Of a DNA stretch of 64,000 bases, positions 7,644 through 63,900 are shown piece by piece. The notes beneath the pieces were generated by a model. The model was not told the DNA's origin and searched no databases. It saw only the letters and a program-made list of their open reading frames with translations. Made by a program: the position numbers and the translations under genes. Numbering within the stretch: position 1 is the first letter of the stretch; every line of letters starts with the position of its first letter. The DNA comes from Cyanidioschyzon merolae (lineage: Eukaryota), in NCBI GenBank assembly GCA_000091205.1, contig AP006500.2; one strand, given 5' to 3'.

Positions 7644-8117
7644 TCTGACGTCGGCAGAATCCGGAACGTCTCCAGAACGCGCCACTGGTACCCGTGGCGA
7701 CAACAGCGGCAGAGCAGGTGCGCTCTTGTGCAGACTGTTCAGTACCGCGGTCGCGATGCTACCGCTGGCGCTAGCCACAGGGTACCCATGTTCATTGAAT
7801 GGAATGAGGGCTTGCGGGCAGTCCTGGCGCCAACTGCCTGCAATCCGCAATGTCGGCTTCGTGCGCACGTATGTCACTTCATGTGCACGGCACGCATGCG
7901 GCCTATCGGCAGACGCGCGTTCTCTGTAGCGGCTCGCTGCCTCCGAAATCTAAAGCCCATGTTTTAGTTTACCTCAAATGATACATAGCTGTCGAGAATG
8001 CTGCGTACCGGAAACATCCAAGTACCTGGAGCGAAAGTCACGGAGCACGTCTTGCATCCCAGTGGCAACCTGGAAGCGTCAACTCCCAGGGGAAAAACCA
8101 CCACACGGGGCACACAC

Positions 8118-8353
8118 CATCACCGCCTTTCGAAAGTCGAACGGCAGCAGTGTACAGTAGTGGCGGCAACCGCGCCCTAGACGAAACGTCTCCAACCGAC
8201 GTGCAGACGCCTCCCGGTTTTTCTCGACCGAGCACCCACTACTGCTTCCAACTTCTTTTCATATAGTTCCACTTTGAAAGGTTATCCAATAAAGTTCTCT
8301 CTTGTCGACTCTGGAGGTCTCTTCTCCAGCACCGCACATTTCCTTATATTGAT
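8118..8353 (-). ncRNA. Candidate omegaRNA scaffold / right-end module of the Fanzor element. It overlaps the last ~23 codons of the nuclease ORF and ~165 bp downstream.
   Basis: A ~235-bp block conserved at roughly 85-90% by eye with 22601..22837; its core is conserved again at 28636..28674. It contains short perfect hairpins (ttcga-aag-tcgaa at 8129..8141; gacg-aaa-cgtc near 8181..8191). Its position relative to the ORF matches the TnpB/Fanzor omegaRNA architecture. Homology stops sharply at 8118 in both copies, as expected for an element end followed by the guide. Confidence 0.45.
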
Positions 8354-10540
8354 AGCGGCATTAAAGTCTCGGTTCACGAATTCCATCCGTTTCTTGCTAT
8401 CACTTGTTGTACTAACCAATGCAAGTAGCCCTCGCACTTTTGCCCTCCTCTCCATTTGCTCCTCCGTCAGCGGTCCGTACTTTGCTATTTCCTCAGGATT
8501 CCGCTGGCACTTTTCCATCCCGACCCTTCGAAGTGTACACCCCAGCTCGTGGTGTGTATAGGACGTTCGGAACTCATCCACAGGTATCGTAAAGAGACGC
8601 CTTGCGCACTCTTTGTACGCTCTCGTCGTTGGAGCTGGCGTAGTTCCTTTTAGGGTCTTCCATCGCCCTGCACCGTACGCTACTACGAGCCTCTGATTTT
8701 CATTCTCCTTGAGCGCGCTCAACTGATTGAAAAAGTTGGCGAACGCCCGCTGCCTCCCACCGTATAGATGCATACACAGACGAGCCCACCGGGGCTTGGT
8801 ATACTCCTCCCACAGCGCATCCCAATGGGCAACACGAACTCCCATGGATTTCCGGAAAGCTTCAAAGTCGGCTCCTCGGCTCGTCACCTCGCTCAACGCT
8901 TCCAGGTGATCCTTCATTCCTGAATTCCAAGTCTCGATTTCCTTCCTCGCATTCATGATTGCCGATTCTCGATAGTATCTCGCTCTCGAGAATCTCAACA
9001 GACGCATATCTTTCTGACGTAAGTTGCCGTCAGTACCATCTTCCGCACGCTTCGGTGCTGCGACGGCTATAATATTCGTATTTCCAGGGTCCGCGCCAAC
9101 GATAAAGTCGTTATCCTGCACTTTCTGCTTCTCAGAGCCCGCCTTGTTGTTTTCTTCATGCTTCGTCGCGTCTACGACAAGGTCGTTATCCTGCACTTTC
9201 TGTGTGGCAGGATCCGCATCCTTCTCATCTCCATGCTTCGTCACGTCAACGATAAAGTCGTTATCCTCCACCTCCTGCGTCGCAGGACCCGCCCCTTTGT
9301 TTTCTTCATGCTTCGCCGCGTCAACGATAAGGTCGTTGTCCTGCACCTCCTGCATCACAGGATCCGCCTCCTTGTTTTCTTCATGCTTCGTCACGAGCGC
9401 AGCCAAGGGCGGAACTGGACGATCTTTCTTCAACCGCCAATAGCGTATACACAAGGCTACTCCATCGGTTTCGATCAACCCAATGAATACCTTCTTCTTG
9501 CTCACTTTGAGACGTTTGAAATCGAAGATGCTCATCCAGTACGTCTCCCGGTTTTCGCCGGTGAAGTCCTCCCTGCTAAAATCGAACTCGGGACTGATCT
9601 CCCTCATGACGCCATGAAGGATTCTGGAGTCGATAGTCACAAAATGTGACTTGATGTTGCCCAACGGAACCACGTTGAAGCGCTTCCCCATTAGGAAAGC
9701 CTTCCGTCTCTCCCACTCTTCATTTGTCTCTTCACTCAGCATCACCTCTGCCTTGCGTTCGATGTCACGATCCAGAAACACGAAATACCGCAGGACGAGG
9801 CGATAGTATCTTTCCTTCTCTTTTTTCAACGCTAATATCTTGTCTGTTGGATTCACCAGCCCCAGTCCCGCACGATCCTCTTGTATAACCGCACGGATCG
9901 TAGAGGCTTCATTGGTGCTCACCTTTGACGTCGTCTTGTCGACAAATTCGACCTCATCTTCACGCTTGCGATCTTTCATGATGCCATTGATAATCGCCCA
10001 TTTCCCATTGCGAGAGATGCCCGAGTAGAGTGCAATCACAGCGCGTCTCATGAAACGTTCGAGGTTCACTGTCAAATGGTTCTTCAGATTCGTGATGTAC
10101 TTCATGGGCCTATATGTGTAAATATCCCGGTCACCCTTGTATCGAGTACCATTGAGGCTGTAAAAGGGATGTTTTTCGTGGAAGACATCCACCCGCTCAT
10201 TTTCCTCCCGCGCTTCCTCTGTACCAAGCGTCAGCTGACGAATAAAAATCTTGTCGAAAAACACGTGTGGAATCTCGACCGTTTCGATGGGCGTCACGTC
10301 GCGATACATCTCCCTCTCCAAATGCATCAGTCCTGACGACGCCTTGAAAATACTCTTGGAGTACGAGTCCACACGTTTTTTGATAGCGTCTCGCAACTTT
10401 TCCTTGTAGGGATCCTTGATATGTCCAAGAAGAAAGGTTTTCACAACCATCTCGTCGTACAGTTGTCTTTCTTGCCGCCTTCGACGTAGGGTATCCCCCT
10501 TTCGGTTCTTCTTCTCTTCCTTTTCTTCTGGACTAGACAC
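8282..10540 (-). CDS. Fanzor (eukaryotic TnpB-like, RuvC-fold RNA-guided endonuclease; OMEGA effector), Fanzor1-like. It has a long N-terminal extension and an internal acidic tandem-repeat insertion.
   Basis: 752-aa ORF. RuvC-I: '[18 protein letters not shown]'. RuvC-II: '[18 protein letters not shown]'. RuvC-III: '[18 protein letters not shown]', which matches the DxNAAxNI signature of TnpB/Fanzor. Spacing is I-to-II ~170 aa and II-to-III ~70 aa. The region between II and III has only 2 Cys (non-canonical zinc finger). It is embedded among eukaryotic housekeeping genes. Confidence 0.75.
9098..9396. repeat. Coding tandem repeat of 4 x ~75 bp inside the Fanzor ORF.
   Basis: Units begin 'acgataaagtcgttatcctgcac...'. 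They encode ~25-aa acidic repeats '[26 protein letters not shown] / [24 protein letters not shown] / [26 protein letters not shown] / [19 protein letters not shown]'. The last unit runs into the RuvC-I motif. Confidence 0.8.
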
Positions 10541-10760
10541 TGTTTTTTGTTTTTTCTGGCAGCCAGCGACACTGGGCCTCCAGGATCGTCGATTTGCTTT
10601 TTCATAACTTTCCTTTTTTTAGTTTTTTTGGAAAAGAACGCTCCCTCAACGCCTCTGATATAAACAGCGAAAGAAAACTTGAAAAAACTAAACTGAGGGT
10701 TGAAATATAACTGAACTGAAAAGTATACTCTGCTGTGACTTTAACGCAAATACAACGTGC
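10541..10760 (-). promoter_or_regulatory. AT-rich 5' flank, the putative promoter/5'UTR of the Fanzor ORF.
   Basis: The local AT content is much higher than the surrounding GC-rich sequence (poly-T/A runs and TATA-like 'ttatattt' on the sense strand). It lies immediately upstream of the ATG at 10540. Confidence 0.3.
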
Positions 10761-10940
10761 ACTTGAGAGCAACACGCTCAAGATCGCGATCCCGTTTCCC
10801 TTCAACAACGACATGCGCGTCGTATTTCATGCCTCCCAGATATGGAGGTGCGCGTATCGACCGCGATGCCCCCTGGCACTCGGACGTGAACTCCAAATAC
10901 CCTCAATAGAAGCATTAGCAGCAGGCTGCCGGGCACGCAT

Positions 10941-11945: not shown

Positions 11946-12139
11946 GGCAGGTACTAGGCACACTCGATAGGACGTATGAAACGACCAGAACATCCGAGAT
12001 GAAGTATATGTACTGTAACTTGGAGGTAGGGTGTTTGATAGATACCTCACCGCGCTCTGAAAAAATATAAAGTAAGAAAAGAAAAATGCGCATAATCGGA
12101 GAACGCTGGCCCAAGTAAACGTCTTGTCAATGAAAAAAA
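11946..12139 (-). repeat. Repeat family B, copy 1. It is the reverse complement of the copy at 22838..23027 and a possible element left-end region.
   Basis: Roughly 85% identical by eye over ~190 bp to the reverse complement of 22838..23027. Homology extends through 'gtcaatgaaaaaaa' (12126..12139). The plus-strand TATA-like 'tataaag' (about 12066..12072) has no counterpart in copy 2. Confidence 0.6.
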
Positions 12140-14824: not shown

Positions 14825-16504
14825 AACATCGTCGGCGTGAGAGAAGCAAAAGGTTGAGCGGCTCAAAAGCATCGAATCTGGTGGACACTTGCGCATTCAC
14901 TTCCCACAGTATGCGTTTGCATGCCGCAGGCGCCGCTGCAACAGTCAGAACTCGCATTTTTGCAGCCGCGTAATCGCTTCCATTTGGCGAATCCAACTTG
15001 ATTGTACCGGAAACCGGCACAGACCTGATTAGACCAGTGAACCTTGAAGATATCGTTCGTCGGAAGCCAGCATTTGCATCGCGATTCGTGTGGGAATGTG
15101 TTTGCTCATTCGCTGGCTCGATCATTCCAGTTAGAACAACGGCAACGACAACAACAGAAGTAGCCCCTGGCTTCTCATGGTATTGGTGATGGCAACGCAG
15201 ACACCGGATGCCGAGCTGCTTTCGCGCACAGTGTTCGTCGAAACGTGTTCCCTCGGCAACGGGACGACAAACGTCGTATCCCCAGGATGGTTGGAGCGTG
15301 ATGTCAGACTTACACGTTTCGTGCACAACTATGGTTTCCACAAAACAGCCCCCAGAACGAAGCAGAAGCCCTCGTCGATTCCGACTGCTCGCGCCTCTCC
15401 AATCGTCTGGTCGATGTGAACCCCACGTGTCACATCAAGATCCATGATATCGCAGGAGGCTCGTCTGCACTGTACGAGACGGCCTCCTCTGTGAGCTACC
15501 GCTGATCTCTGGGAACGAGTAGAACGCGTTCGAACAACATCGCGATAACGAGTAGCGGAGCTCGTTCCAAGCTGCTCGTATATAACGAAGAAATGCAAAG
15601 CAGTTTACGCGGACGAGAGAGTCCCGCGGAGTATCGGTCTGGATGCACTGTGTGTAAACGAGGACACATATCCAAGAGTCGTGCAGCGATGCTCATTTCC
15701 AACCGTTCAACGTAGGTCATGAGAGAGGCTTCGTGAGGCGCGTGAATCTCGCTTTGCAAGGCGTCATCGCTGTCGAAGCACTTCCACATCAGGAAGATGG
15801 AGCCAAATACCTAAACGGAAACCAGATGAAGCTGTTCGACTCTCACAGGCTCTGCTTCATCGAGAGTCGAACGTGATGATCGCCAGGATCGTTACGAAAA
15901 TGGAATAAAAGCGTTAGTGCCCGTCTTATCGTTCCAAGCGTCCTGTCGAGCAGCAAGGAAACGCGCTGCGCGCAACATTCAAAGCAAACATGAGCGTCCT
16001 AATGACTCAGACCGACGATTCCTGGGAAGCGTACATGAGGCTGCGCTGCTGTCGCCAACATATTCGGTCTCACGGAGGCAAGAGGCATGCATTCGCTAAC
16101 ATGCTCAATGATGCGGTTCACGACTTGTTCGGCAACCTATAACAGGGCGAAGTTCTCGCGACCGATGGGATGGCAAGCTGTGCGTCGCGCCAGTGGGGCA
16201 TGGCGTCCAAGCAACTGGGACCCATAGAATGTGCTTCGAATCTTGCACAGTATCAATGGAAAAACAGAAGCGCTTCATGAATCAGTCAGCAAAGGAGTAC
16301 CGCATTCGGATCTCCTCGCATCAGAATCGACTCCTTTCACCCCGCACACCAGTGAAACCCTGCGGTGCAGTGCTCGGGACTTAGCCGAGCCAGAAACCCC
16401 AACTCTTTGCTGTAAGACCTCACTGGCAATGTGCATATGCTGCATCTTGCGGGTCTCTGCATGATGCCGTCCCCGATACATGGAACAGATTGGTTAGCTT
16501 CTCT

Positions 16505-22600: not shown

Positions 22601-23027
22601 CATCACCACCGCCGTTCGAAAGTCGAACGACAGCAGTGTGCAGTCGTGGCGACCGGCGCCCTAGACGAAACGTCTCCAACTGACGTGCAGACGCCTCCCC
22701 GTCTTTTTGGACCGGCCACCTTCTACTGCTTCCAACTTCTTCTCATATAGTTCGACTTTGAGAGGTTGTCCAACAAAGTTCTCTCTTGTCAGCTCTGGAG
22801 GTCTTCTCTCCAGCACCGCACATCTCCTGATACTGATTTTTTTCCATTGACAAAATGTTTACTTAGGCCAGCGTCCTCCGATTCTGCGCATTTTTCTTTT
22901 CTTACTTTTTTTTCAGTGCGCGGTAAGGTATCCATCAAACGCCCTACCTCCAAGTCATATTCCCTATACTTCGTCTCGGATATTCTGGACGTTTCATACG
23001 TCCTACCGTGTGTGCCTAGTGCCTGCC
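22601..23027. mobile_element. Solo composite remnant: module copy 2 (22601..22837, omegaRNA-scaffold/right-end homolog in the same orientation as locus 1) joined directly to repeat B copy 2 (22838..23027). It lacks a Fanzor ORF.
   Basis: The module homology ends at the position equivalent to 8353, inside the Fanzor ORF 3' end. The B homology begins at the very next base. B is inverted relative to its orientation at locus 1. Short overlapping ORFs here are just read-through of the repeat. Confidence 0.55.
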
Positions 23028-27989: not shown

Positions 27990-28700
27990 ATTAAAGACTT
28001 TCCCATGATTTCCGGCGATGTCCTTCAACTGGACAGCTTCCCAATTCACCATTCCACTTGCGCTCGAGCTTCTCCCGATTTTGTTGGAGTAGAGCCACTT
28101 CTCATTCCGCCGTACACTCCGTGGGTGAACCGCATCTAAGAGAGAGTTTTCTATTGTGGAGCGCAATGGTCGCTGCACTCGGAGAATCCCTGTGCCATTC
28201 AGCAGTCAGCGACACCGAGACACTTGCCGTCTTTTTCCTGCAAGTCCTTCTTGCTCCGGGAAGGTTCTTACGTGGGGGCATAAGCATGTGCATTGATTTT
28301 CAAAATTAAAGACCCTAAGGCATGCGCCGAGTGTACAGTTCAGAACATCGTTATGGAGAGCAGGCAGCGGAGTGCTGAGGACATAGAAAAGCACGGAGAG
28401 CTGCCGGAGCACCAAACGGCACAGAGGGCGCGAGTTCTTGGACTCCTCGCACTGACCAGTTCAACCAATCGCAAGAAACACATTGAGTTCATGAACTGAG
28501 ACTTTACCGCCGCCATCAATATCAGGAGATGTGCGGCACTGAAGAAGAGACCCGCGGAGCTGATGCGAGCCAGCCTTGTCGGACAACCTCTCAGTGTCGA
28601 GGTGTATAGGAAAAAGCTGAGGCTGATAACAGACAGCCGGTCGAAAAAAAGCTGGGAGGCGTCTGCAAGTCGGTGTATGTATGTGCTCTATGATCGCGAA
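27990..28700 (+). pseudogene. Degraded Fanzor/TnpB-like paralog. It has frameshifts and an in-frame TGA before the RuvC-III motif, has lost its stop, and is followed by a partial copy of the omegaRNA-like module (core 28636..28674).
   Basis: '...TAQRARVLGLLALTSSTNRKKHIEFMN*DFTAAINIRRCAALKKRP...' aligns with the locus 1 C-terminus '[46 protein letters not shown]'. Upstream fragments 'SHFSFRRTL', 'IVERNGRCTRRIPVP', 'DTCRLFPAS' match 'AFANFFNQL', '[19 protein letters not shown]', '[11 protein letters not shown]' in shifted frames. Downstream, 'ccggtcgaaaaaaagctgggaggcgtctgcaagtcgg' matches the reverse complement of 8196..8232. Confidence 0.5.
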
Positions 28701-28741
28701 ACGTTTTATGCCCACCGAGAGGAGTAACGCAGCGTGACTGC

Positions 28742-50478: not shown

Positions 50479-53400
50479 CTAAAATGACGGCGAACGCGAT
50501 ATCGTTTCCTCTGCGTCATCGGTATCCGCAGAGCGCTTGCGTTCAAGCGCTGCGCCAGACCAGGACAGCTCCTGGTTTGGCTCCAACATCGACTCCGGGT
50601 CCAGCACCGGCTCCGGGAGCCGAGCGCGCCCCAGTGCACCCAGCAGGGGTGCATAGTCGAATAGGTCGCTCTTCACGCTCGGCAGACTGCGCAGAAGCTC
50701 ACGCAAGCGATGCGCCTCGAGTGCCGCTCCGTTCTTGAGCAATGGATAGCGACCGGTGCGATCGGGGCCGTACTGCAAGAGGCCCGGCCCGTAGAACACC
50801 GCCAGCTGATACAAACACTCGAGCAGCGTGTTCGCTTGTGTTGGTTCCTGGAAACTGCTTCCGTACAGTTCAAGCAGCAGGTTGGATCCCCCGGTCGTAG
50901 CCATCTGTCGATGAGCGTCGTGCACGACCAGTCGCGTCGTCAATGACGCAAGACGGGCGATGGACTGGGGGCGCTCATGCGTCGCCGTCGACGTCAAAAC
51001 GGCTTCGCTGCGCACACTGACGCCCTCGAAAGCCTGCAGGTCGCGCCAGCGCTGAAGCGCTTCCGTCCAGAGCTCCAGCGCCAGTGCTTGCGGCTCACCA
51101 GCATGGGCGCTCAATTGCACCACAAGCGCCCGAGCGCTTAGATAGCGCCAGTCCACCGCACTTAGAGGATCGGCGGCACCCGCCGCAACGGACGCTTGCA
51201 TGTTTGGTGCCTGGGCGGCCAAGCAGCGCACCAACCAGTCCCGATAACTGGCCGCAGAGGGGCGACGAAGCACGCGCGTGAGCGCCGTCGCAAAGGGTGC
51301 GCCAAACGTGCTCATGCAGCTAGCTAGCGCCCAAACCAGACCCGGCTCCTCGTGACTCATTAACAGCGTCAGCAGATTGCCATCAACTCGGACGGTCTCG
51401 ATCGACGGACAATCGCTATTCAGCTGGTAGCGCGGTTCAGCGCGGCGGTCACGCGTCGCATCCACAGGCCGGAGGCAGCGCATGAGCGAAACGCTTAACG
51501 CCATTGGATGCAGGGCCTGGAGCCGCTCCAGCACTGGATTCAGCGATGCCGCAGTCACAGTGTGCTGATGCTGACCGCTTTGACTGAGGGACTCACGGAA
51601 CGCCTCGCGCAGCACGCGATCAAACGCTGAAATCACCAGTCCAATATCGTGCTCGTAAAAGGCGATGCGAACGTATTCGGCAAGCAGGAGCCAGGCGTGC
51701 AGCATCCGCGCCACCAGAGGCGCTACCTGCTGCTGCTGTTGTTCTTGTTGTTGTTGTTGTTGCTGCTGCTGTTGCTGCTGCGCTCGCAGCGCGTCTATAT
51801 GGCGCTGCATGCGCAAAAACGCCTGCAAAACGGCAGCCGGCGTCGGCGCTGCAACCCGCACCTGCGCATGCGCTGCAGCAACAACCGCCTCCAGGGCACT
51901 CAACTCTAAATCCAATAGCGCCAACCGCTGAGAAGGTTCAGCGGAAGCAGCACCCGCAACCTGATGCGCTTCTATCCAATCCCATAGCGGCCGAATGACG
52001 CCCAGCATTTGTTCGAGCACCGTCGGCAAACGTACCCGCTTCCATCGATACTGCCATAGCGTCCCCAGCGCCTGTCGAGCCAGGAACCGCGGTAAATGAG
52101 CGGTCAGTACACCACGCGGTATATACGGTACCGTCGTTACATAGGACGGTCGTTCAGCAATGCGCCCGGTTGGCTGCGTGGCCCCCGCAGCCGGCTCATG
52201 CACCGAGTGCGCCGTGATCACACGCAGCAGCAGCGCGTAGAGCATCAGGTACGCGGGCATGCGTGCATCCTGCGGAGGACACGTGTCCAGCGAAGCTTCC
52301 AGAATCTCGGCAAGGACACGCAGCATCGACACGCTCGTATCATGGAAGCCGAGGCGTGCGATCCAGTGTACTGCCACAGCCGGTGCCCGCACGACCAGGC
52401 TAGCCAAGGGATGCTCATCGAGAGGGCGTGTTCGTGACGTGCCCGTTGCGTCCATTTGACGGGATGAAAGCAGCGACTTGTCTTCGAGCCATGTCGTCGG
52501 TGGTAACAGACTCCAACACTCAGCAACGAGCGCAGTGTCGAGCGTTTCAGGCGGCGCGCTGAATAGGCGATGCAGCGCTTGTTCCCGTACCCATTTCCGG
52601 AGTTGTTGCTGAAAACTGATCCAGTCCAGCTGCGGCATCCGTTGTCGTCGATGACCAACTTGCAAGAGGCGCAACAGTCGACGACTCCAGGGCAGGAGCA
52701 CATCAATGCGCGCCGGGCGTAGCGGGAAACTGCTGCCTTTGCCGTATGTGTCCACGAAGCGTTCCAAAGCTTCATCCGAATCGAGTAGCAAGTCGGGATG
52801 ACGGTGCATGGGTGCCCGCTCCGAAGATCTCCACCTCAGACCGGCTTCGAGGCCAGCCACGGGCGGTGCTGCGCCGCCGCCACTAGCTAGTAGTGATGAT
52901 GGTGCTGGTGCTGGTGGCGATGCATCCACGGCAAGCAGCAGTCGTACCAGGTTCAGTAGACGGAATACGAACAGACGAGGCCATTGCGACCAGTCGTGCT
53001 CAAGAAGTCGACGCACAAGCACGCTTACCAGTGCCAAATAGGATGTCCGCGTTGCCTGCTCCGCATTCCACGCGTCGTTCGGCGACGCTGCCGCTGCCAT
53101 CGTTGTTGTTGTTGTTGGTGGTGGTGTTGTAGCTGCAACTGCAGATGAACCGCCGCTCATGCCAAAAGCCGCTGCAGTCATCCGCGTCGCAGCGTCGCTG
53201 TCACGTCGCGAGCGCGTTTCGACGCCGACCGCATCCCCAGCAGGTGCCAGACGCGCTGCGGTCGCTTCGCGGCGCTCCGAGCTTGGTGTCGCGTCGCCTA
53301 GCGCTAGGTCTTCGGCGAGCAGCGCAACGACCAACAGGTCAAGCAGTGCATCCAGAGCTCGGCAGGTGTCCAGCGAGACCGGCGGTACCAGCTGACGCAC

Positions 53401-56400
53401 CAGACGAAACAACTCCACTGGCCAGCCGCGAGCGTACAACACCGTCAATAGGCGACGCGCTGTGCGTCGCGGCAACGACGACTCTTGGAGCAGCGCTCGC
53501 AGAGACGAAACCAAGCCCACCAGATAGATACACTGTGCTGGCTCCAGATGAGCGGTTGTCGGTCGTTGCACCAGCTCCCATACGTCCCCCGTGAACAGCG
53601 TCTCGCAGGCAGCCCAGTGACCAACAAGCACGTCAGCTAGGGTGATGTCCAGTTCACTCTCCTGGAGCACACACTGGTAGAATGGACGAACATTCACCCC
53701 GAATATAGCCAAAGCGCGTGCAACGCCAAACACCTCGGTAACATTCTGCTCGGCACGTTCACTGCTCCACTGCATCGTATCGGTTGCCGGGGATGAAGCA
53801 GCCTGCGCCGTACCACCGGAACGCCAGGGCGGTGACTGCAGCGGCCTCGAAGGCACCGCTCTGGTAGCGTTCGACAGTCGACTGGTACGATCCGCCGCGG
53901 TGGACGCTTGCTCAATCATTACCACCTCGATTTCCAGGGATCTCTTCGCTGGAAGCGCGACTGGATACACTGTAACTGCTTCGAAGGCACACTGGGCAAG
54001 CGCGAAACGAGCCAGTCGCTCTAAGCACCCGACTGCCTGCAGAAGCGTTCCGTCGCCTACTGCAGTGTCCGTAGCGGCAGACGCAGCTGCAGCTCTGCCG
54101 CCACTCATACCACGGAGACGAAACTTGTGCTTCAGCTGTTGACCCCAGAGCGCGAGCAGCATCAGAAGCGTTCCGAGTTCACTGGCCAGAGAGAGCGTCT
54201 GCGGCCAGTCAGATTCGAGTATTGCTTCGAAAAGCGGCGGTGCTCGCTGGGCATTGCGACTTGCGTGCGTCGATAACGATGACGATGACGCTCGTTGTGA
54301 GCCAATGGATGACGCTCGGATTCGTGTGCAATGCACCGGGGAGACCTGGTTCAGCACCAGCGGTAGCGCTTGGGCAAGACGCTGGCCAAGCATGGCGCGT
54401 ACACGAGCGGCCTCGATCACCATGCCAGCTCGCAACGCCTGACGACGTACCGATTCCGTCACTTGGATTAGTTGACGAACGCTCGGAACCGCTCGATCTT
54501 CATTCGAGCTGAGCAGGTACAACCCCAGCGGAACAAACAGCGAACGCAAAGCCTCCAGCCACAGCGCGGCCTGCAACTCCTCAAGTCGCTCCCGTGTGAG
54601 TGCAGCAACGCGTCGCTCAGCGGACTGGCGCGATGTAGCAAGCAACGCCTTGCGTAGCAACTCGCAGAACATCATCGCGCTATCCAAGGCAAGCAGCTCT
54701 TCCGTCCGCTGCACCACGAGTACCTCGAGTGATGCACCCGCAGAGGCCGCAGCGCTCTCGTCCACATTGTCGTTCGTGGTGCTAGCGCTGAGTGCTTGAT
54801 GCTGGTCGCGCTCGCGGAGCCAGCTTTGTAGTTCACTGAGCACCACTTGTTCAAAAATCGTCTGCACTGTTGGGCCGCGTTTCCACAGGCCCCTAATGAA
54901 ACTCAAGTCGTAGCCCGAGTGGAATCGAGCACGAGATAGCGCAGGTCGATAGAGCATCACTCGCACGAGACAAGACAGCATACGTCCGAGAATTGAGCTG
55001 GGCGTTGGCCCCGGTCGCAACTGCCCCAACGGGGCTGTTGGTACCTCAGCCAGCTCCGTGCACGTCGATTCCACGGGTTGAAGCAAAGCCTCCAGCTGTT
55101 CCCGTCGGATGCAGAGAGCATCTAGCGCATGCCAGGCGGCTATGTATGCTTCTGCTGTCGCCGGGAGGTCCATCGATGTCGACTGCTCCGCCGCCAGCAC
55201 AGCCAGTAATCCGTCGATGGTGTGTTCCTCCCAGAAAACTGCTGCATTGGCGGGATCATCGTTCATTGCCAAGGCCAAGGTCTGCGTTGCGACGCTCCAG
55301 ACAGCACCACCAAACAGTCTCGGATGGCGCAGGACTTGCTCCAGCAAGTGTCGAATCACAGGTTGATGTAGGGTCAAGGGCTCCGCCGGCGTTCCGGCAG
55401 CAGCGGTAGCATTCCCACCAGAGGTTGCCGGGCCCGAGTGCGCACCTGTCGCTTGCGCGCGTTCTGAAGGTAACCACGCCGTTGGACCAGTTGTGCTCGC
55501 AGCTGGCATCGTACCGGAGAGTGTCGGTGATGCATTCCGTATCAAAGAGGCAGCAGCGGGAGTCCCGTTACCGTTCGATTGACTCTCGTAGCGTAACAGC
55601 AAAAAGTGCCAAGCGATGCGCATCCAGGTGCTCTCCAGCAGCGTCAACGTTCCAAACGTTTCCGAAAGTGCCTCGGCTGCGTCATGGTGTGCCCAGGGGT
55701 ACGCCCGGATGCGTTCTAGGTAGCGTTCGTGTTCCCGATGAGCAGCGGACCTCTCAGAAACGTGCCCGATGAGGTATTGCAGCTGTGCGAGTAGCATCTG
55801 CTGGACGTATGCCATTTCGTGGCGAAGCAATCCGAAAAAAGAGTCATCAGAGCGCGTTTGACGAAACACCATCGTCCAGAACTGCAATGCCCATAGCGAC
55901 AGCAGTGAAGCTGGGGCAACCGCCCCCAGTACACCGGTCAGTTTTTGAAACAAACCCACCAGTTGCAGTTGTAAACGCCCATCGAGATGCTGGAGACGTC
56001 GCTCCCGCCGCAGTAGTCGACTCATGGTGCTCAGATAGAGCTCCAGCCGCTCGGCGTGACTAGAGGATGCATCATTGGGCGTTTCCTGTTGCGTCTGGAG
56101 TGCAGTACACACCGCCTGGAACAGCCAACTGGCTCCGCGGCCATGTAGCATCGATGTGAGCAGCGGTTTCTCCCACTTCCACGTCGCTGCAGCAACAGCT
56201 AGCAGACGCAGCGACGCACGCTCGACAAGAGCCCTGACACTGGGGTGGAGCTCGACGCTCACTGCGTTTCGCGCTCCGTTAGCCAGCGCCGGGCGTTGAC
56301 TGGTTTGAAAGAAGGCACCCCGCAGAGTATCGATCACGTCCTCCCAAAAGTGTGGTTCGCTCATCAACAACTGCTCCAGAGATACTCGCGCCGTGCCCGA

Positions 56401-57594
56401 GCTCGACAGCAGCACCGCCATGGCCTCGAAACGGACCGCCAGACGCAAGAGGCCCCACTCGAGCCGGAAACGACACCAGTGACGCAAGTTCGTTCGTTGC
56501 GAGCGTCGCTGACCCCGTGCAGCATTCACAGTGCTCGCTTTTGGGCACGCTTGGACTCGTTGCTCCGGCGCTGTACGCTCATGATGGATGCTTGCTCGCC
56601 AGTGAGGTGCAAAAGCGTCCTGCAGTGACGCCCACTGGAGCACATCCAAGCAAGGACTTGATCCCTCCGTATCAGGGCGTGTTCGTAGCGCATGAAAAGC
56701 GCTTCTGTAAGCACCGGCTTCGGATGCTGAGTCCAGTGGACTGGTGCGGCACCAGGCGCATGACCTTGAGGCCGCACTAATGTTCTCCTCGAGCGCAGCG
56801 GGAACCACACGATCCCCGGCATTCTCCGCAACGCTCTCTATTTCCATGGACGAATCCGGTGAGCTACGACTTTCCCAGCGCGTAAACTCAAGTCCACTAC
56901 CCGAGAGAGACTGCTCGTCGGTGCTGGTATCGGTGCACGAGGCCACTGCAACCGTCTCGGTGACTGGCTCGGCGGCAGCCTGCGTACGAGCACGCAGAGC
57001 CCGGAACAAGTCATCATAAACAGGATCGTGTCTGCAGAGTTCCAGGAGAGAATCCACGAGACGAGGTCCCAACCAGGCTGCGTCGGCACTCAAGGGTGCG
57101 TAAGCAGCCTCGCTCAGGAACGGCACCCGTGCTACCTGCCACCAAACTTCAAGAGCCTGGATCACAAGAACGAGACAGTCGGTTTCCAATATCTCTTGCA
57201 TAAGATCAAAAGGAAGCACCGACTGGCGGCATTCGGGTGCGAGTTGCGCAGCCAGCCAACCGAGCTTCGTGAGGTCTACCGCCAGTTCGCGGAATACACC
57301 GTTTCGTGCACCAGTCTGTCCAGCTTCGGCGACATCAGCGTCTCTAGTCGATAACGCCCTCATTGCGCGCAAGTTCCGTTCAATCGAAGCCCAAACTTGC
57401 TCAATCCAACCCTTCCACGGAGACGCTAGGCGAAGTAGCGGGTACGTGAGCCACGGACTCGGAGCCGCTGCTGTCACCTTCCAGGTTGTTCCCGTAGGGG
57501 CAGTGCCGGCCTGTGTACCCGTCCAAACACGCTCGAGCCAAGAGTCGAGCTGATCAGGATCAAACCCGAACCAATCATTCGTCTCGTACTCCAT
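50479..57594 (-). CDS. Very large hypothetical protein (2371 aa), no identifiable catalytic domain. It contains polyQ, polyA/T and Ser/Ala-rich low-complexity tracts and is probably a helical-repeat scaffold.
   Basis: Single uninterrupted 7.1-kb ORF with GC-rich codon usage like its neighbours. 'AQQQQQQQQQQQQEQQQQQ', 'TTPPPTTTTTMAAAAS'. Long Leu/Ala-rich predicted helical stretches. Confidence 0.7.
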   Translation of the reverse strand: MEYETNDWFGFDPDQLDSWLERVWTGTQAGTAPTGTTWKVTAAAPSPWLTYPLLRLASPWKGWIEQVWASIERNLRAMRALSTRDADVAEAGQTGARNGVFRELAVDLTKLGWLAAQLAPECRQSVLPFDLMQEILETDCLVLVIQALEVWWQVARVPFLSEAAYAPLSADAAWLGPRLVDSLLELCRHDPVYDDLFRALRARTQAAAEPVTETVAVASCTDTSTDEQSLSGSGLEFTRWESRSSPDSSMEIESVAENAGDRVVPAALEENISAASRSCAWCRTSPLDSASEAGAYRSAFHALRTRPDTEGSSPCLDVLQWASLQDAFAPHWRASIHHERTAPEQRVQACPKASTVNAARGQRRSQRTNLRHWCRFRLEWGLLRLAVRFEAMAVLLSSSGTARVSLEQLLMSEPHFWEDVIDTLRGAFFQTSQRPALANGARNAVSVELHPSVRALVERASLRLLAVAAATWKWEKPLLTSMLHGRGASWLFQAVCTALQTQQETPNDASSSHAERLELYLSTMSRLLRRERRLQHLDGRLQLQLVGLFQKLTGVLGAVAPASLLSLWALQFWTMVFRQTRSDDSFFGLLRHEMAYVQQMLLAQLQYLIGHVSERSAAHREHERYLERIRAYPWAHHDAAEALSETFGTLTLLESTWMRIAWHFLLLRYESQSNGNGTPAAASLIRNASPTLSGTMPAASTTGPTAWLPSERAQATGAHSGPATSGGNATAAAGTPAEPLTLHQPVIRHLLEQVLRHPRLFGGAVWSVATQTLALAMNDDPANAAVFWEEHTIDGLLAVLAAEQSTSMDLPATAEAYIAAWHALDALCIRREQLEALLQPVESTCTELAEVPTAPLGQLRPGPTPSSILGRMLSCLVRVMLYRPALSRARFHSGYDLSFIRGLWKRGPTVQTIFEQVVLSELQSWLRERDQHQALSASTTNDNVDESAAASAGASLEVLVVQRTEELLALDSAMMFCELLRKALLATSRQSAERRVAALTRERLEELQAALWLEALRSLFVPLGLYLLSSNEDRAVPSVRQLIQVTESVRRQALRAGMVIEAARVRAMLGQRLAQALPLVLNQVSPVHCTRIRASSIGSQRASSSSLSTHASRNAQRAPPLFEAILESDWPQTLSLASELGTLLMLLALWGQQLKHKFRLRGMSGGRAAAASAATDTAVGDGTLLQAVGCLERLARFALAQCAFEAVTVYPVALPAKRSLEIEVVMIEQASTAADRTSRLSNATRAVPSRPLQSPPWRSGGTAQAASSPATDTMQWSSERAEQNVTEVFGVARALAIFGVNVRPFYQCVLQESELDITLADVLVGHWAACETLFTGDVWELVQRPTTAHLEPAQCIYLVGLVSSLRALLQESSLPRRTARRLLTVLYARGWPVELFRLVRQLVPPVSLDTCRALDALLDLLVVALLAEDLALGDATPSSERREATAARLAPAGDAVGVETRSRRDSDAATRMTAAAFGMSGGSSAVAATTPPPTTTTTMAAAASPNDAWNAEQATRTSYLALVSVLVRRLLEHDWSQWPRLFVFRLLNLVRLLLAVDASPPAPAPSSLLASGGGAAPPVAGLEAGLRWRSSERAPMHRHPDLLLDSDEALERFVDTYGKGSSFPLRPARIDVLLPWSRRLLRLLQVGHRRQRMPQLDWISFQQQLRKWVREQALHRLFSAPPETLDTALVAECWSLLPPTTWLEDKSLLSSRQMDATGTSRTRPLDEHPLASLVVRAPAVAVHWIARLGFHDTSVSMLRVLAEILEASLDTCPPQDARMPAYLMLYALLLRVITAHSVHEPAAGATQPTGRIAERPSYVTTVPYIPRGVLTAHLPRFLARQALGTLWQYRWKRVRLPTVLEQMLGVIRPLWDWIEAHQVAGAASAEPSQRLALLDLELSALEAVVAAAHAQVRVAAPTPAAVLQAFLRMQRHIDALRAQQQQQQQQQQQQEQQQQQVAPLVARMLHAWLLLAEYVRIAFYEHDIGLVISAFDRVLREAFRESLSQSGQHQHTVTAASLNPVLERLQALHPMALSVSLMRCLRPVDATRDRRAEPRYQLNSDCPSIETVRVDGNLLTLLMSHEEPGLVWALASCMSTFGAPFATALTRVLRRPSAASYRDWLVRCLAAQAPNMQASVAAGAADPLSAVDWRYLSARALVVQLSAHAGEPQALALELWTEALQRWRDLQAFEGVSVRSEAVLTSTATHERPQSIARLASLTTRLVVHDAHRQMATTGGSNLLLELYGSSFQEPTQANTLLECLYQLAVFYGPGLLQYGPDRTGRYPLLKNGAALEAHRLRELLRSLPSVKSDLFDYAPLLGALGRARLPEPVLDPESMLEPNQELSWSGAALERKRSADTDDAEETISRSPSF

Positions 57595-57920
57595 AATGCA
57601 GACGAAACGGTAGTTGCTCTATCAGCAACGCTGAACAGTGCGCGAAAAGCAACTGTGTTTGCGCGCAGGTCCGCTCGCGAAGCCAGACGCCGCAGGCTAT
57701 ACCTTTCCGCAGAACGCGACTTTCGATAACACCTTCCTAGTGCTGTTTGGTACAGCAAAACTGTCCAAGGAATCCAAGAAGCTTCACAGTCCAGTGCCTG
57801 CAGTTGACGCAAACATAACCCCGCACCGTATCGGTCGTGAACACAATGCCTTACGTCCGCAGCTCAAGCGAGCACGCTTTGGGTTCTAGGTATAGGAAGC
57901 GCTTCGCCCTGCATTGTATT

Positions 57921-58440
57921 ACGCTATGAAGTGTTGGATTGTAGTACACTAGGATTTGTTATATAGTTTTACGCTATGAAGTGTTGGATTGTAGTACACT
58001 AGGATTTGTTACATTATTTTACGCTATGAAGTGTTGGATTGTAGTACACTAGGATTTGTTACATTATTTTACGCTATGAAGTGTTGGATTGTAGTACATT
58101 AGGATTGGTTACATTATTTTTAAGCTATGAAGTGTTGGATTGTAGTACATTAGGATTTGTTACATTATTTTTAAGCTATGAAGTGTTGGATTGTAGTACA
58201 CTAGGATTTGTTACATTATTTTACGCTATGAAGTGTTGGATTGTAGTACATTAGGATTTGTTACATAGTTTTACATAATAAAGTGTTGAATTTTAGTACA
58301 CTAGGATTGGTTATATCGTTTTACATTATAAAGTTTTGGATTGTAGTACATTGCACTGCATTGCTTTCATTTGTCACATCGCTTTACACGATGATGTTAT
58401 GGACTGTAGTTCATTGCACTGCATTGCTTTGATGTGCGCG
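57921..58440. repeat. AT-rich minisatellite: ~9 tandem copies of a 50-52-bp unit ('acgctatgaagtgttggattgtagtacactaggatttgttacattatttt'), followed by 2 copies of a related ~50-bp unit ('cattgcactgcattgcttt...').
   Basis: Period read directly from 57971/58021/58071/58122/58174. It lies in the divergent intergenic region between the giant gene (start 57594, minus) and the cyclophilin gene (plus). Confidence 0.85.
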
Positions 58441-59498
58441 ATGTACCGTCGAGCGTAGCACTGGCGTCGACGGCGCCTGCTACGAGTACGGCTCGAGGGC
58501 TGGTTTCGTTGCGCATTCGCCACGTGCTCGGGAAACGGTGCCGGGTCCACAGGTTAGGTCTGAGACGACTGGAAACCTGTCTAGGTTAGAGGGGCGTTCA
58601 TCAAGTACTACTACGTAGGCAACAGGAAGCCGTCGTTCCAGGCGTGAACGGTGTCGCGGGAATAGTCAGCGTGGTGCAGCGCGGGCAAGTTGCTGTACGC
58701 GAGTACGCGCGGCGTTTTTATCCCGGTTTGCAACGCGGCTGCTGCCAGCGTCTGTACCTACACTTTGCCAAAAAAAGCAATTTCCAGATTTTCGGTCACC
58801 TGGAAGGGTTTTATCTGAGCACTACGGACCACACGCCGTTCGGCTATGCTGGCTGCCACCGCATGGAACAGCACACTGCACGGAGAGGCTCCAGCGAGCA
58901 CTTGAGCCGTTCTCGGGGCGTGCGAGCAACAGCACGCAACGCTACGTCCATAAATGGAAACGAGGGTTTTTATGCAGCTACTTGGAACGTCGTCGTGGTG
59001 TGCAAGCGGGTGCCAGTGCCGTGTGCATCAGCTTTGAGCAACTTATGTTGGATTTCACAGCCGCGGCTTTGGATTCAAAGCCACAGCAGCAATCGCGGCT
59101 TTGGCGCGTCCGTTTGCACCCAACCAACGGGCGAGAATCGACATGTGCGCTCGAGTACGCATCCCATGGACTACTGGCTTCGTACTAGGACACATTGCCG
59201 CCAGACTCGGAGGCGTTCCCGCAATCGCGCTCGTTTTCGCGTAGGCGCTGAACCTTTAGCAACCCCAACTCCAAATCGTCAAACTACTCTGTACGGGAGA
59301 TGTGGATGGCAGTGGGCGCATGGGAGCTTCCAGCGCGTTCGAGCTACAAAATTCCAGACCCTGGGCGAGAGCACCTGCCGTTTGGTGCTGGCAACTGACG
59401 GCGATGGACGACCAAAACGATCGCCCTGCCATTGGCAACGAATGCGAATGCTCGGAGAGCCCGCTTCGAAAGGATGCACAGCCGCTGAAACTAGCAGA

Positions 59499-60965
59499 AT
59501 GGGAAGCTTGATGCGGCACTCGCTGACAAACTTGCGGCTCGATGTTCCCAGCCTTGTCGATACTGGTGTGCGCTGGGCATGCGCGCTGGTGATATCCGCC
59601 GGTGTCACCCTCTGTGGTGTCCATCCGGATAGCGTGGCTGTTGGTCGCGCGTCTGCAGCAGAAGGCGCTTCCGACTCCATTGCAGACTTTGCACGAACTG
59701 TTGGTGCTGCCCAGCCACGAACCAGCATCGATCGATTTGGGAACCCGCTGCTCCGTCGATACGTTTCAACGGATGGAGCGGCAGTTTTGCGGTGGTCGCT
59801 CCCGTTGCCAGAAGACTCCCCTTTTTGGGAGATTCAACGCCAGCTAGAACAGGTGGACGTCGAATTGAGCTTACGCGGAAGCTTCCGCCGCGGTCTGCGT
59901 GAGGCGCTGAAGAGTGCTCGCCAGGCGCTCGCTGCTCTGCAACGAGAGCGTCTCGATATTCTGCTCGATGTTGGCCGTGAACAAGTTGTCGTTGACACCC
60001 TCCGAAGAACGGAGCAGGAAATCACCCATCTTGTCGAGTCTCTGGAGCAACTAAACGCGTTGGGCCCGGGCTCAACGCAGCCGACGATACGCAGCGTGGC
60101 GGCAGCCGTGCGAGCGGAAGCATCCGCGTCCCGCTCGGGGGCCTTGGCGGAGCTCGCTCGCCTCGAGGAGGCCAGCATACGCCGTGTGCCTTTTCGCATT
60201 CCTCGTCGATACGATGACGAGGCGCGGCTGCGAGGCCGAGCGCTGGTACGACTCTACCTGGAAGCGCCGAAGACGACCGCCGGCGCTCGCCCAGCCCGCA
60301 GCGATACGGGGCAAACGCGCGGAACACCTGCACCTTGTGTGCTGCAGGTCGTGGTAGACGGCTGGAACGCCCCGCTCACATCCGGCAACTTTGTTCGGCG
60401 AGTGCTTGCCCATGAATACGACGGCATGCCGCTCATCGCGGAAGAGCAGGGCTCCTTCGTTTTCTTCAGCGAAGCCGCGAACGACGGCAAGCCTGCTGAC
60501 ACCGAGCATCTGCTTCCGCTGGAGATCCTGCTCGAGGGCGAGCCCGCTCCCCTGTACGGCGAGTCGATCGATACGGCTATGGTGGCAACCCAGCGGCAGC
60601 CGCCGGTGCTGCCAGTTGGCCCTTTCGGAACCCTGGCAATGGCACATTCCACCGAAGATGTCAACGATGCGCAGCGCGCTTTCTACATCTTTACTTTTGA
60701 TAAGCGATCGCTGGCTGCGAATAATCCCACCGGCAACGCCTTTACTGGCACCGTAGCAGTTTTCGGGTACCTTCCGGATGCATCTTCATTACAGTGCCTC
60801 GCAAATTTGCATCCAGGGTATCGGATTCGAACAGCTGAACTGGTGTACGGCAGGGAACGTTATTTTGGCAATGCTGCCGAGGAAGCGCGAGTGCTTGGCC
60901 CAGCGGGTAGCTTTCCAGATGAAATGCGTTTGGCGCTTCTGGAGCGTCGGCAACCTGAAACCTAA
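59499..60965 (+). CDS. Thylakoid-lumen cyclophilin-type peptidyl-prolyl isomerase (CYP38/TLP40-like), with a helical N-domain plus a C-terminal cyclophilin-like domain. The ORF is open from 58644, but the start is placed at Met 59499 preceding a putative bipartite transit/lumen-targeting peptide.
   Basis: The C-terminal 'VVDGWNAPLTSGNFVRRVLAHEYDGMPL...LPLEILLEGEPAPLYGES...PFGTLAMAHSTEDVNDAQRAFYIF...GTVAVFGYLPDASSLQCL' is collinear with the plant CYP38 '[28 protein letters not shown]...VPLEIMV...PFNAFGTMAMAREEF...GRYAVFGYVTD'. N-terminus: 'MGSLMRHSLTNLRLDVPSLVDTGVRWACALVISAGVTLCGVHPDSVAVGRASAAEG', a hydrophobic stretch followed by AxA. Confidence 0.8.
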   Translation: MGSLMRHSLTNLRLDVPSLVDTGVRWACALVISAGVTLCGVHPDSVAVGRASAAEGASDSIADFARTVGAAQPRTSIDRFGNPLLRRYVSTDGAAVLRWSLPLPEDSPFWEIQRQLEQVDVELSLRGSFRRGLREALKSARQALAALQRERLDILLDVGREQVVVDTLRRTEQEITHLVESLEQLNALGPGSTQPTIRSVAAAVRAEASASRSGALAELARLEEASIRRVPFRIPRRYDDEARLRGRALVRLYLEAPKTTAGARPARSDTGQTRGTPAPCVLQVVVDGWNAPLTSGNFVRRVLAHEYDGMPLIAEEQGSFVFFSEAANDGKPADTEHLLPLEILLEGEPAPLYGESIDTAMVATQRQPPVLPVGPFGTLAMAHSTEDVNDAQRAFYIFTFDKRSLAANNPTGNAFTGTVAVFGYLPDASSLQCLANLHPGYRIRTAELVYGRERYFGNAAEEARVLGPAGSFPDEMRLALLERRQPET

Positions 60966-63900
60966 AGTCTGATATTTTGAGCACCCGAGGACAGCGTCGG
61001 TAAACTTGCTTGAACGTATCCCTGGGAGTCATGCAGAGAGGTGTGCGAAGCGGAGAGAGAGCGACAGGTGCATGCAGGCAATTGAGATGCACGACCCGTT
61101 CAGGCTGTTAAGCAGCATTCTCGAATCGTTTTATATGGTGATCGTTCTGGACCCAGGCAGGAAAATCGTTGCTGACGCATCTGCATGTACAAATGGGGTG
61201 CTCCAGGCATGTAGTGTGCTGAATGGACCAAACTTGTGCCTTGATCCGGTCGGGAAACGAAAGCTCCCTCTTTGTCGCTGAGTTTGCTTTCCGAAAGTCT
61301 CGAACGTAGCAGCGAAATGCCTAGACCGAGTTTGGAAGGATATTCTAAACAGCGTTGCTCGACTTGAAACCGCTGGACGCTCCAGAAGCACAAGCGATTC
61401 CCGACTGTTATTCGAGGTGTTCAAGTCTCGATTTCGAGAGTGCTTGAGCAAATGGCGGCCTGTTGAAGAACACCAAAGCGCAAGCGTCTCATTTTCGATT
61501 ACCTCGTCATCTGATGACCGCTTCATTTACAGTACTCCATCTGACGGAAACGAATCTATTTCACGTTCAGATTTTACACTTATTCCAAGGTGTACTCGTG
61601 CTCGCGATACGTCAATGTCGTCTTGACTGCATCGATGAGCATCGTCGCAAGTCAATTTCTGCAATTGTTCTGCTCTCCGGGTGAAGGAGCAGAAGTGCAG
61701 GCCTTGCGCGCTGCAGCACCTCCAGGCCCATGGGGTACTCCATCAAACGATGCGGGTCATCGGTCATTTGGATTTCGAACTCATGGAACAAGATGGACAA
61801 TGCATGCATCCTTCCTTTGAACAAGCGAAACTGTTGGCGTACCTTGCTGAGTCTCATGTATGCTCGGCACAGGTCCTCTTCGAGAGCCATTTGGACGTTC
61901 GCGTACGCTCACTACAGGAGAAATTCGAAGCATTCGCTTCTTTGCCCAGTGTGGTGCTCAGCGCGTCGAGAATGGTACGGATGCGGTCACGCTGCTTGCT
62001 GGCCTCCATCATGCCCTACTCTTGAAATGAGGACGGGAAGGCGCACGGATTCGGGGCGTCCGCTCTGCGCTGTGGGGCGCTGTTCAGGAACACGTGGCAG
62101 CGCAAGATGCAAAAAAAGTGCAGGGATCACGTTGCACCCAGCCTTTGATGAAGACGTTTGCTGGTCCGAGGCCCGATATCAACTCCATGAGCTTGGGCGC
62201 TCTGGAGTGTCACTTGCCCACGGGCCAAGATCGCTTCCGAACTCGCAAGCACCTCGGTACCTTCCGCCACCAACTCGTCATTTGCCTCCATCGGTATGGT
62301 ACACCAAGAACTCCTTCCATCATTCCCACCTTTTATAGGGCAGTAGGCTAAGCCTTCACCAAGTTCAGCGGCAAAAGGGTACACCTCGTGAAGCGCTCAA
62401 CATTGATTCACATTCGGATTTCGCTTTTGAGCTTGGTTTGATACTTTTGGGCACCTGTGCTGTGTTTAGTATCGTTCCAGCGACGAGGCGCCGCTTCATT
62501 TCCTGGTATGCTGGCGGTCGTCCGTGCAAATCTCTTATCCTGCGAACACGCCGTACCAAATGTAGTGTTCTGGGTACCAGTTGTGTTGTTGCACAACTAT
62601 TGGATAGAAATATCCAGAGGAATATAGACAGCTGGTAGCCGTGCCTCCGGAAACTCTGTGCACCCTTGCTCGGCGTCGTGTCTCGGGACAAGTGAAGCGA
62701 TGCGATCCCTAATAGCGTCCTGCGTCTCTCGGTGGCATCGATGCGAACAACTCGTCTATGGATTCGTGAGTTTCGGAACGATGTTTGACACCAGAAACGA
62801 CACCTTCGTCTGCATTGAACCGGGGAACCTCGGCAGGCACAAACCGCAGCTCCATGGAAACCTCAGCTGCGTACGCCTTTTCGCTTTTGTGCGATCGAAT
62901 GCAATAATGTCCAACAGAGCGACACAAGCATCTGGGATGGAGAAGCCACCAGGAGCGCTTTCATGAAGTATGAGGTGCTGAACGAGCCTGTCCCTACGGT
63001 GATTTACGGATGGTCATTCGATGAAATCACCGCTGGCGCTGACGTACACGGAATGCTCACTTGCCACAACCGTAGGGAGAGCGTTATACCCCTGTTCGAG
63101 CACTCGTATATATCTACCATTCAACTGTTCACAAAGTCTCATCGATTGAGACGAACATCCGTCCATTACGTCATAAGCGTTCGCGTTTTAGTATGGAATC
63201 GATGAAGCCGTGTTCAGCGCGCAACGTGCTCCCGTAAAAGCGCGTGCTTTCTGTGCCCGTCCGTGTCGTTGCTCACCATTCCTATCTCTAGTACAGAAAC
63301 AGCACATCTTTCGACTTGCTCAGCGATATTCATGAGAGCGCGTATCGAGTGGGACGGAGTGACGACGAGACAGTCATATGGACAGTATTTGAAAGGTTTT
63401 GGGTGGCTAACCAACAGAACAAGGTCTAGAAAGCGGCCTCGTCATTCACTTGAACATCGTGGAATACGTGAAATATCTGAGTGAAAACGTTTTGTTGCGT
63501 GACTCCAGTGACAGCATCTGGTCTTTCCGCGACATTGCTCTAATTTTCGGGATACACTGCTCTTGCCGACACCTGCGAGAACGACAATCAAGAACAAAAA
63601 GTGTGTGCTGGTTCAGGCGTTCGCAAATTTACTACTCTGAGATGAACACAACGCCCTGGTCATCTCTCGATGCGTCTGTAAAAACGCGATTTCTCGCTCC
63701 GGAAGGAGCACGCCTCGCACAGCCGTGCGACGCCCCCAAGAACGTTGACAGGAAACGGGATCACTTTCATGACAGCATTCAGCATTCCGTTCCTGCGCGG
63801 CAACAACCAGCCAACCTATCAACCTACCTGCTTGCCTGCCTGCCTCGTCGTCACCAATTGGTGCCAGAGCGGTAGACATAGTGCCTGCCGGACATCTGAG

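Follow-up and report, generated by a model that had tools for sequence, protein, structure and literature searches.

The ωRNAs of characterised Fanzor1 nucleases come from the segment that runs from the 3' end of the nuclease ORF to the right end of the transposon, with the guide taken from the flanking DNA, and in the case of GtFz1 the ωRNA overlaps 17 codons of the ORF (PMC10432273). Fanzor1 ωRNAs are 75-150 nt long; their first stem-loop, of seven base pairs, is conserved, and the remainder of the scaffold varies (PMC11423790). In viral and algal Fanzors a conserved 3' non-coding structure has been reported to extend into the ORF (PMC10530073), and in ISDra2 the TnpB ωRNA (reRNA) overlaps the 3' end of tnpB and runs to the right end, imposing a dual constraint on the last codons (PMC10432273). 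Also, 'ghost' Fanzor loci consisting of the ωRNA only, from inverted repeat to inverted repeat, have been described (Saito et al. 2023, Extended Data).

The stretch of DNA analysed here (64,000 nucleotides, referred to as the window) carries three Fanzor-related loci, the features of which are as follows.

8115..10869, minus strand: locus 1 (L1), a nearly full-length copy of a Fanzor1 transposon family; the unit common to other copies
8282..10540, minus strand: the locus 1 ORF as it stands, 752 aa, a Fanzor1 nuclease
8301..8319, minus strand: inverted repeat CTGGAG-N7-CTCCAG in the coding sequence, nearly invariant, at which codon periodicity is first lost
8177..8284, minus strand: premature TAA of locus 1 (8282-8284), the ancestral last 35 codons, translated as QPFKVELYEKKLEAVVGARSRKTGRRLHVGWRRFV*, and the family stop TAG (8177-8179)
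8196..8232, minus strand: locus 1 copy of the 37-nt module, whose core (8196-8215) reads GRRLHVG in the ancestral frame
8115..8176, minus strand: 3' untranslated end of the element, with a GGCG...CGCC hairpin and a terminal hairpin CGTTCGA-CTT-TCGAA (from the family alignment and fold z-scores); presumed 3' part of the ωRNA scaffold and transposon right end
22601..22837, minus strand: locus 2 (L2), a 5'-truncated copy consisting of the 3' end only, with the last 58 codons, the module (core 22680-22699) and the 3' end
28331..28674, plus strand: locus 3 (L3), with the last ~108 codons and the module (28636-28674; core 28654-28673)
28675..28715, plus strand: tail of locus 3 after the module, GTGTATGTATG...GAAACGTTTT, unrelated to the tail of the main family

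Since a Pfam search of the locus 1 ORF returned nothing beyond a sub-threshold TNB-domain match, and a single-sequence search against the PDB gave no match, profile search and structure prediction were needed to establish the identity of the protein. A profile of the locus 1 protein and its relatives matched 8GKH (SpuFz1, the Spizellomyces Fanzor) with E=7e-6 and the Guillardia Fanzor1 with E=0.005. The AlphaFold model (pLDDT 65, pTM 0.55), compared with the PDB by Foldseek, was closest to SpuFz (E=7e-17, TM 0.51-0.67), PpFz (1e-14) and GtFz (2e-13), with values from 7e-17 to 4e-13 across these structures and Cas12 proteins far behind, and the predicted fold is the TnpB/Cas12-like RuvC-WED-REC fold of the solved Fanzor1 structures. 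A RuvC-III motif (xRDxNAAxNI type) is present in locus 1 and invariant in its relatives, and the D in GADPG is a plausible RuvC-I residue; the rearranged RuvC glutamate was not located in the protein. The family to which locus 1 belongs is Fanzor1.

All close homologs of the locus 1 Fanzor come from JGI metagenomes. When metagenome contigs were scanned with the C-terminal 207 residues of the protein, a query from which the module was deliberately left out, at least 404 related stretches with differing flanks were recovered, 80 of which were retrieved as loci (45 non-redundant at 97%). Blastn comparison of locus 1 with the 80 related loci places the beginning of the shared unit at ~10869 and its end between 8109 and 8124, mostly with ...GATGGTG at 8115. 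This 3' boundary is sharp: conservation runs ~165 nt beyond the ENF(I/V)G codons and then ceases abruptly, pairwise diversity rising from 0.33 to 0.72 past the end, where the copies are unrelated. Neighbouring genes in the window are eukaryotic (HECT ligase, GRF-zinc-finger SNF2 helicase, GRAM/VASt), and its aldehyde dehydrogenase (ALDH) is 82% identical to that of Cyanidiococcus yangmingshanensis and 67% to that of Cyanidium caldarium. The family is a multi-copy mobile Fanzor1 unit in the genome of a eukaryote, a cyanidiophycean red alga of hot springs. It resembles SpuFz1, GtFz1 and PpFz1 in that the nuclease fold matches the solved Fanzor1 structures and in being a multi-copy mobile unit of a eukaryotic nuclear genome, and differs from them in its cyanidiophycean host and in that the ωRNA, TAM and guide are putative here. 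No paper devoted to Fanzor in Cyanidiophyceae came up in the literature that could be searched.

Within the 2.75-kb unit neither a transposase gene nor, by inverted-repeat search, terminal inverted repeats were found. A Helitron-like 3' hairpin was considered as an identity for the terminal stem and set aside, the end of the element (…GGTG) being unlike CTRR. One distant relative (P0026, 35% identity; L084 588-1466) lies directly 3' of a DDE_3 (Tc1/mariner-type) transposase gene. A motif akin to the 3' core, GGTGAGGCGTCTCGCGCGGTGCAC, occurs ~30 nt upstream of the point matching 10869 in L010, L015, L019, L026, L048, L060 and L063, and several copies bearing it (L019, L048, L060, L063) have >400 nt of extra 5' sequence in common, so that the full mobile unit may exceed the 2.75 kb of locus 1. 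Within the Fanzor ORF itself, four tandem 75-nt (25-aa) repeats (9092-9395, minus strand) fall in a disordered insert of the model (residues 372-472, pLDDT<50), and the number of repeats seems to depend on the paralog.

The module had been described as a non-coding element accompanying the nuclease gene, but the family consensus ORF spans it and ends …GGRSKKTGRRLHVSWRRFV*, with the TAG lying within GTCTAGGGCG (window 8177-8179). It appears non-coding only because of the premature TAA of locus 1, which stands 35 codons early and is CAA in the family consensus and in locus 2. Locus 2 and many paralogous proteins carry CAA/Q at this position and read through it (e.g. …GQPLKVELYEKKLEAVVGGRSRKAGRRLHV…), and 17 of 26 non-redundant copies, among those without a stop before the ENFVG codon, are open past GRRLHV. 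Locus 1 also has no in-frame ATG at the family start (10541-10640), its first Met being residue 31. The metagenome contigs L001-L003, 99% identical to it, share both lesions, so that to call this gene an intact Fanzor was an overstatement; locus 1 is a prematurely terminated copy in the course of decay. The ORFs of distant Fanzor1 relatives (31-46% identity) stop ~20-25 residues sooner, which makes the C-terminal tail a lineage-specific extension, and the core motif is absent downstream of the distant relatives P0025, P0026 and P0028.

The two sequences on which the original prediction was based are present at 28636..28674 and 8196..8232, and their similarity, given there as about 33 of 37 positions, is real and reflects homology, global alignment of loci 1 and 3 yielding 32-34 matches out of 37 in the module and 19 out of 20 in the core. 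The 20-mer core, GGGAGGCGTCTGCA(C/A)GTC(G/A)G, has three sites in the window, every one at a Fanzor 3' end: 8196-8215 and, with one mismatch, 22680-22699 on the minus strand and 28654-28673 on the plus strand, compared to 0.02 expected by chance in dinucleotide shuffles. An nhmmer profile of the motif retrieved these three core sites only within the window, so that the motif is not a generic repeat, a possibility that the original prediction had itself raised. Its occurrence beside Fanzor ORFs extends to the related loci, 66 of 79 having the motif 55-85 nt past the ...ENF(I/V)G codon with three mismatches or fewer in the core; the remaining 5 motif matches among the 79 loci fall where second Fanzor copies occur.

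Locus 2, whose reading frame is open across the module, is 87% identical to locus 1 over 239 nt (blastn) and 83% over 58 aa (tblastn), and it starts about where codon periodicity disappears. It is a candidate solo or 'ghost' ωRNA locus: like the ghost loci described elsewhere it lacks the nuclease gene, having retained no more of the element than its final 239 nt, where the ωRNA is presumed to be encoded, and unlike them it looks like a simple 5' truncation adjoining another repeat. The adjoining sequence belongs to a second repeat family (22838-23027 versus 11946-12139, 87% over 194 nt) and has the opposite orientation to the copy near locus 1. In L087, too, a sequence similar to this repeat comes after the relic.

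Locus 3, a relic, belongs to a diverged subfamily, although it is less diverged than had been reported: where weak, frame-shifted similarity of roughly 30% was described, tblastn aligns it with residues 668-775 of locus 1 in a single frame (28332-28652) at 52% identity and 71% positives over 108 aa. Its lesions are an in-frame TGA (28500-28502) and a +1 indel in an A-run inside the module, and this 1-nt indel is its first frameshift. The DNA of its coding part is 68% identical to locus 1 and 73% to the family consensus, and identity at codon positions 1, 2 and 3 is 71%, 75% and 60%. Two further diverged relics were found with the locus 3 translation, namely L085 (by way of P0031) and L087 (by way of P0030), and the frame of the core differs in both locus 3 and L085. 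Truncation of locus 3 exactly at the module end (28674) was entertained and is probably wrong, since its tail resembles, weakly and by eye, that of L085. Other Fanzor traces in the window are a decayed remnant at 15834-16109 on the plus strand (30% aa identity with stops, E=4e-5) and a weak RuvC-III-like match at 61329-61433 on the minus strand (E=0.27). A tandem array with a period of ~100 nt and 77-90% identity (57912-58415) lies beside or inside the large ORFs 50479-57594 and 58644-60965.

The central claim of the original prediction, that the module is conserved better than the protein it accompanies, is not supported as it was stated. The module is indeed the best 37-nt window in the comparison of loci 1 and 3 (34 matches), but the RuvC-III block reaches 32 of 37 (Fisher p = 0.44 for module versus block), and when columns are shuffled at 70% overall identity, the best 37-nt window reaches 34, 33 or 32 matches or more in 6%, 21% and 51% of cases. 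The excess of the locus 3 module (32-34/37 versus 68-73% overall) is not significant after window choice (p ~0.06-0.2), and its unusually good match lies inside the range of sampling noise. Identity in the CDS, the 37-mer, the core and the RuvC-III block is 73%, 86%, 90% and 83% for locus 3, compared to 67%, 68%, 65% and 80% for L085 and 66%, 59%, 55% and 76% for L087, so that locus 3 alone shows an excess of the module over the CDS. With 68-73% identity in its coding part, locus 3 is not uniformly ~85% identical either, yet the contrast between module and coding sequence is much smaller than described. Across 45 family copies, diversity is 0.20 in the 37-mer, 0.16 in the upstream CDS, 0.11 at codon positions 1+2 and 0.28 at 4-fold sites. 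The 37-mer thus varies significantly more than codon positions 1+2 do (p=5e-6). Compared to 4-fold sites, its lower variability is not significant in these 45 copies (p = 0.11), and that of the core is borderline (p = 0.065). In two strain contigs that cover locus 3 the relic differs at 2 positions and the module at none, at an overall identity (99.3%) that leaves the comparison without power to show current constraint.

Much of this would suit an account in which the module is ordinary transposon sequence under no special constraint, and the high identity seen in a relic of 344 nt, locus 3, arose by sampling noise or through a small patch of gene conversion. The shuffles, the equally conserved RuvC-III block, the behaviour of L085 and L087 and the comparison with 4-fold sites all lean that way; we nevertheless regard this account as unlikely, given the retention of the core in 66 of the 79 loci, the folding of the terminal 135 nt and the pattern of substitution in the core. 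As measured against the consensus, pN/pS is 0.19 upstream, 0.25 in QPLKVELYEKKLEAVV, where codon periodicity persists, 0.63 in the 19-codon tail and 1.34 in the GRRLHV core, and the shift in the synonymous/non-synonymous ratio is highly significant. Protein-type constraint thus fades exactly at the module. Synonymous change is low in the core at the same time, with a divergence of 0.071 (upstream, 0.277), and only one of 140 six-codon windows ranks lower; a trough of the same depth occurs far upstream, at AKYGPL (8468-8485, minus strand; pS 0.067). The 12-nt AGGCGTCTGCAC shows about equal conservation at all three codon positions. The CTGGAG-N7-CTCCAG repeat may mark the upstream edge of nucleotide-level constraint: it corresponds to helix 1, 90% paired in the structure-pair count, and the alignment region that holds it (273-329) has a diversity below that of 4-fold sites (p=0.0025). 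The same substitution pattern bears on the idea that the module acts at the protein level only, encoding a functional basic C-terminal tail, GRSKKTGRRLHV (e.g. a nuclear localisation signal or an RNA-binding tail), without an RNA role. A tail of this kind would agree with an ORF that is open across the module in many paralogs and with K/R-rich sequences in which substitutions often keep the charge (RSKKTGRR, RSRKPRKR, RSKRTRRR), but it is difficult to reconcile with the rise in pN/pS, the loss of codon periodicity and the unusual conservation of synonymous sites in the core. Moreover, the tail is entirely missing in distant Fanzor1 relatives and the relics locus 3 and L085 have the core in another frame, and we judge an exclusively protein-level role to be quite improbable.

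As regards folding, the 135-nt stretch that begins with the module and closes the element has a mean z of -1.93 in 45 copies, 47% of which fall below -2, clearly unlike the controls (mean z of 0.04 and 0.19 in two equal-length CDS windows and 0.09 in the flank). A window restricted to the module has only a weak fold (mean z = -0.84), and the fold of locus 3 is less stable than that of its shuffles (z = +1.5); locus 2 folds best of the three window copies (z = -3.95 for the 3' 233 nt, compared to -1.65 for the 3' 233 nt of locus 1). The terminal hairpin has alternative sequences in some copies. Covariation is at shuffle level in the three module helices, i.e. the closing stem (CAGUAGUGG/CCACUACUG, also given as CAGTAGTGG/CCACTACTG), the core hairpin (GAGGCGUCU/AGACGUUUC) and an alternative helix (UAGGUGGCC/GGCGUCUG), and the whole fold derived from locus 2 has 79.4% paired cells, equal to the shuffled mean, in a family whose copies are too alike, and many of them too decayed, for such counts to decide on a structure. 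The RNAalifold consensus on 46 sequences is weak (-2.6 kcal/mol) and without compensatory pairs. The 3' region of locus 1 has no sequence similarity to known RNA families, Rfam 15 giving no match with E<=1 in 7900-8700, although Rfam may contain no Fanzor ωRNA models. The functional structured-RNA segment that had been proposed is, in sum, partly supported as a guide-RNA-like element, on grounds other than those first advanced: its position, the fading of protein-type constraint, the low core pS and the terminal fold argue for it, while the conservation argument, covariation and the Rfam search do not.

Conservation at the nucleotide rather than the amino-acid level would fit equally well if the core were a DNA signal of the transposon end, such as a subterminal transposase binding site or another cis element, and not part of an RNA. 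The core does lie ~100 nt from the right end, beside the terminal hairpin, and the similar GGTGAGGCGTCTCGCGCGGTGCAC motif is found near the 5' side of some copies; this 5' motif is missing from locus 1, however, and as a shared 9-mer it could be due to chance. With neither a transposase gene nor a terminal inverted repeat found in the 2.75-kb unit, and with known Fanzor right ends doubling as ωRNA templates, we consider a purely DNA-level signal very unlikely. Because of this double use of Fanzor right ends, the DNA-signal and ωRNA readings are not mutually exclusive.

We consider it somewhat probable that the module is the 5' part of an ωRNA scaffold located at the right end of a Fanzor1 element and overlapped by an extended ORF. 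The nuclease ORF, ~20 codons longer than that of distant relatives (…VVGGRSKKTGRRLHVSWRRFV*), would by this extension enter the ~120-nt terminal segment that is presumed, from its position and by analogy with characterised Fanzor1 loci, to encode the ωRNA scaffold, and the guide would be taken from the DNA immediately past 8115. Intact copies translate the A-rich half of the module together with the GGGAGGCGTCTGCAC core, and these codons evolve as though the constraint on them were exerted mainly at the nucleotide level. The core itself may form one strand of an ωRNA stem, for which GAGGCGUCU:AGACGUUUC and UAGGUGGCC:GGCGUCUG are candidates, with AGACGTTTC as the proposed pairing partner. The comparisons show that the nuclease is a Fanzor1, where the shared unit begins and ends, that the ORF reads through the module, and that protein constraint relaxes there with little synonymous change in the core; transcription of the segment into an ωRNA, and any particular fold of it, are inferred.

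The arrangement agrees with that of Fanzor1/ωRNA systems in that conservation beyond protein-type constraint continues past the ORF 3' end and ceases sharply at the right end, and 118 nt separate the start of the module from this end (8115), a distance that falls in the 75-150 nt range of Fanzor1 scaffolds (PMC11423790). Compared to the 17-codon overlap of GtFz1, the overlap would here be at least 20 codons and achieved through a lineage-specific ORF extension. As in ISDra2 TnpB, the nuclease gene contains at its 3' end a guide-RNA scaffold (presumed in this case) that reaches the right end; ISDra2 is, in contrast, a bacterial IS200/IS605 element with TnpA and without detectable sequence relation to the family described here, whose protein has ~750 aa and Fanzor1 architecture. 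The element belongs to a known type, Fanzor1 with an ORF-overlapping ωRNA region, and the module needs no new category. A more far-reaching version, in which the GGGAGGCGTCTGCAC core is a strand of the conserved first stem-loop, the ORF overprints the ωRNA gene by ~20 codons, so that the last residues of the nuclease are a by-product of selection on the RNA, and the family is active and of very high copy number in a thermoacidophilic genome that is otherwise streamlined, locus 2 being an example of its solo ωRNA loci, is conceivable but in our opinion doubtful.

The case illustrates how the premature stop of one copy can disguise a presumed RNA region that overlaps the ORF as a separate non-coding module. 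If the preferred reading, that of an ωRNA scaffold overlapped by the nuclease ORF, is correct, the elements would constitute a previously undescribed Fanzor1 family of thermoacidophilic red algae (Cyanidiophyceae), together with its right end and a candidate ωRNA region, and its hundreds of natural variants would be useful raw material for defining an RNA-guided nuclease of eukaryotic origin that tolerates heat, along with the scaffold of its guide.
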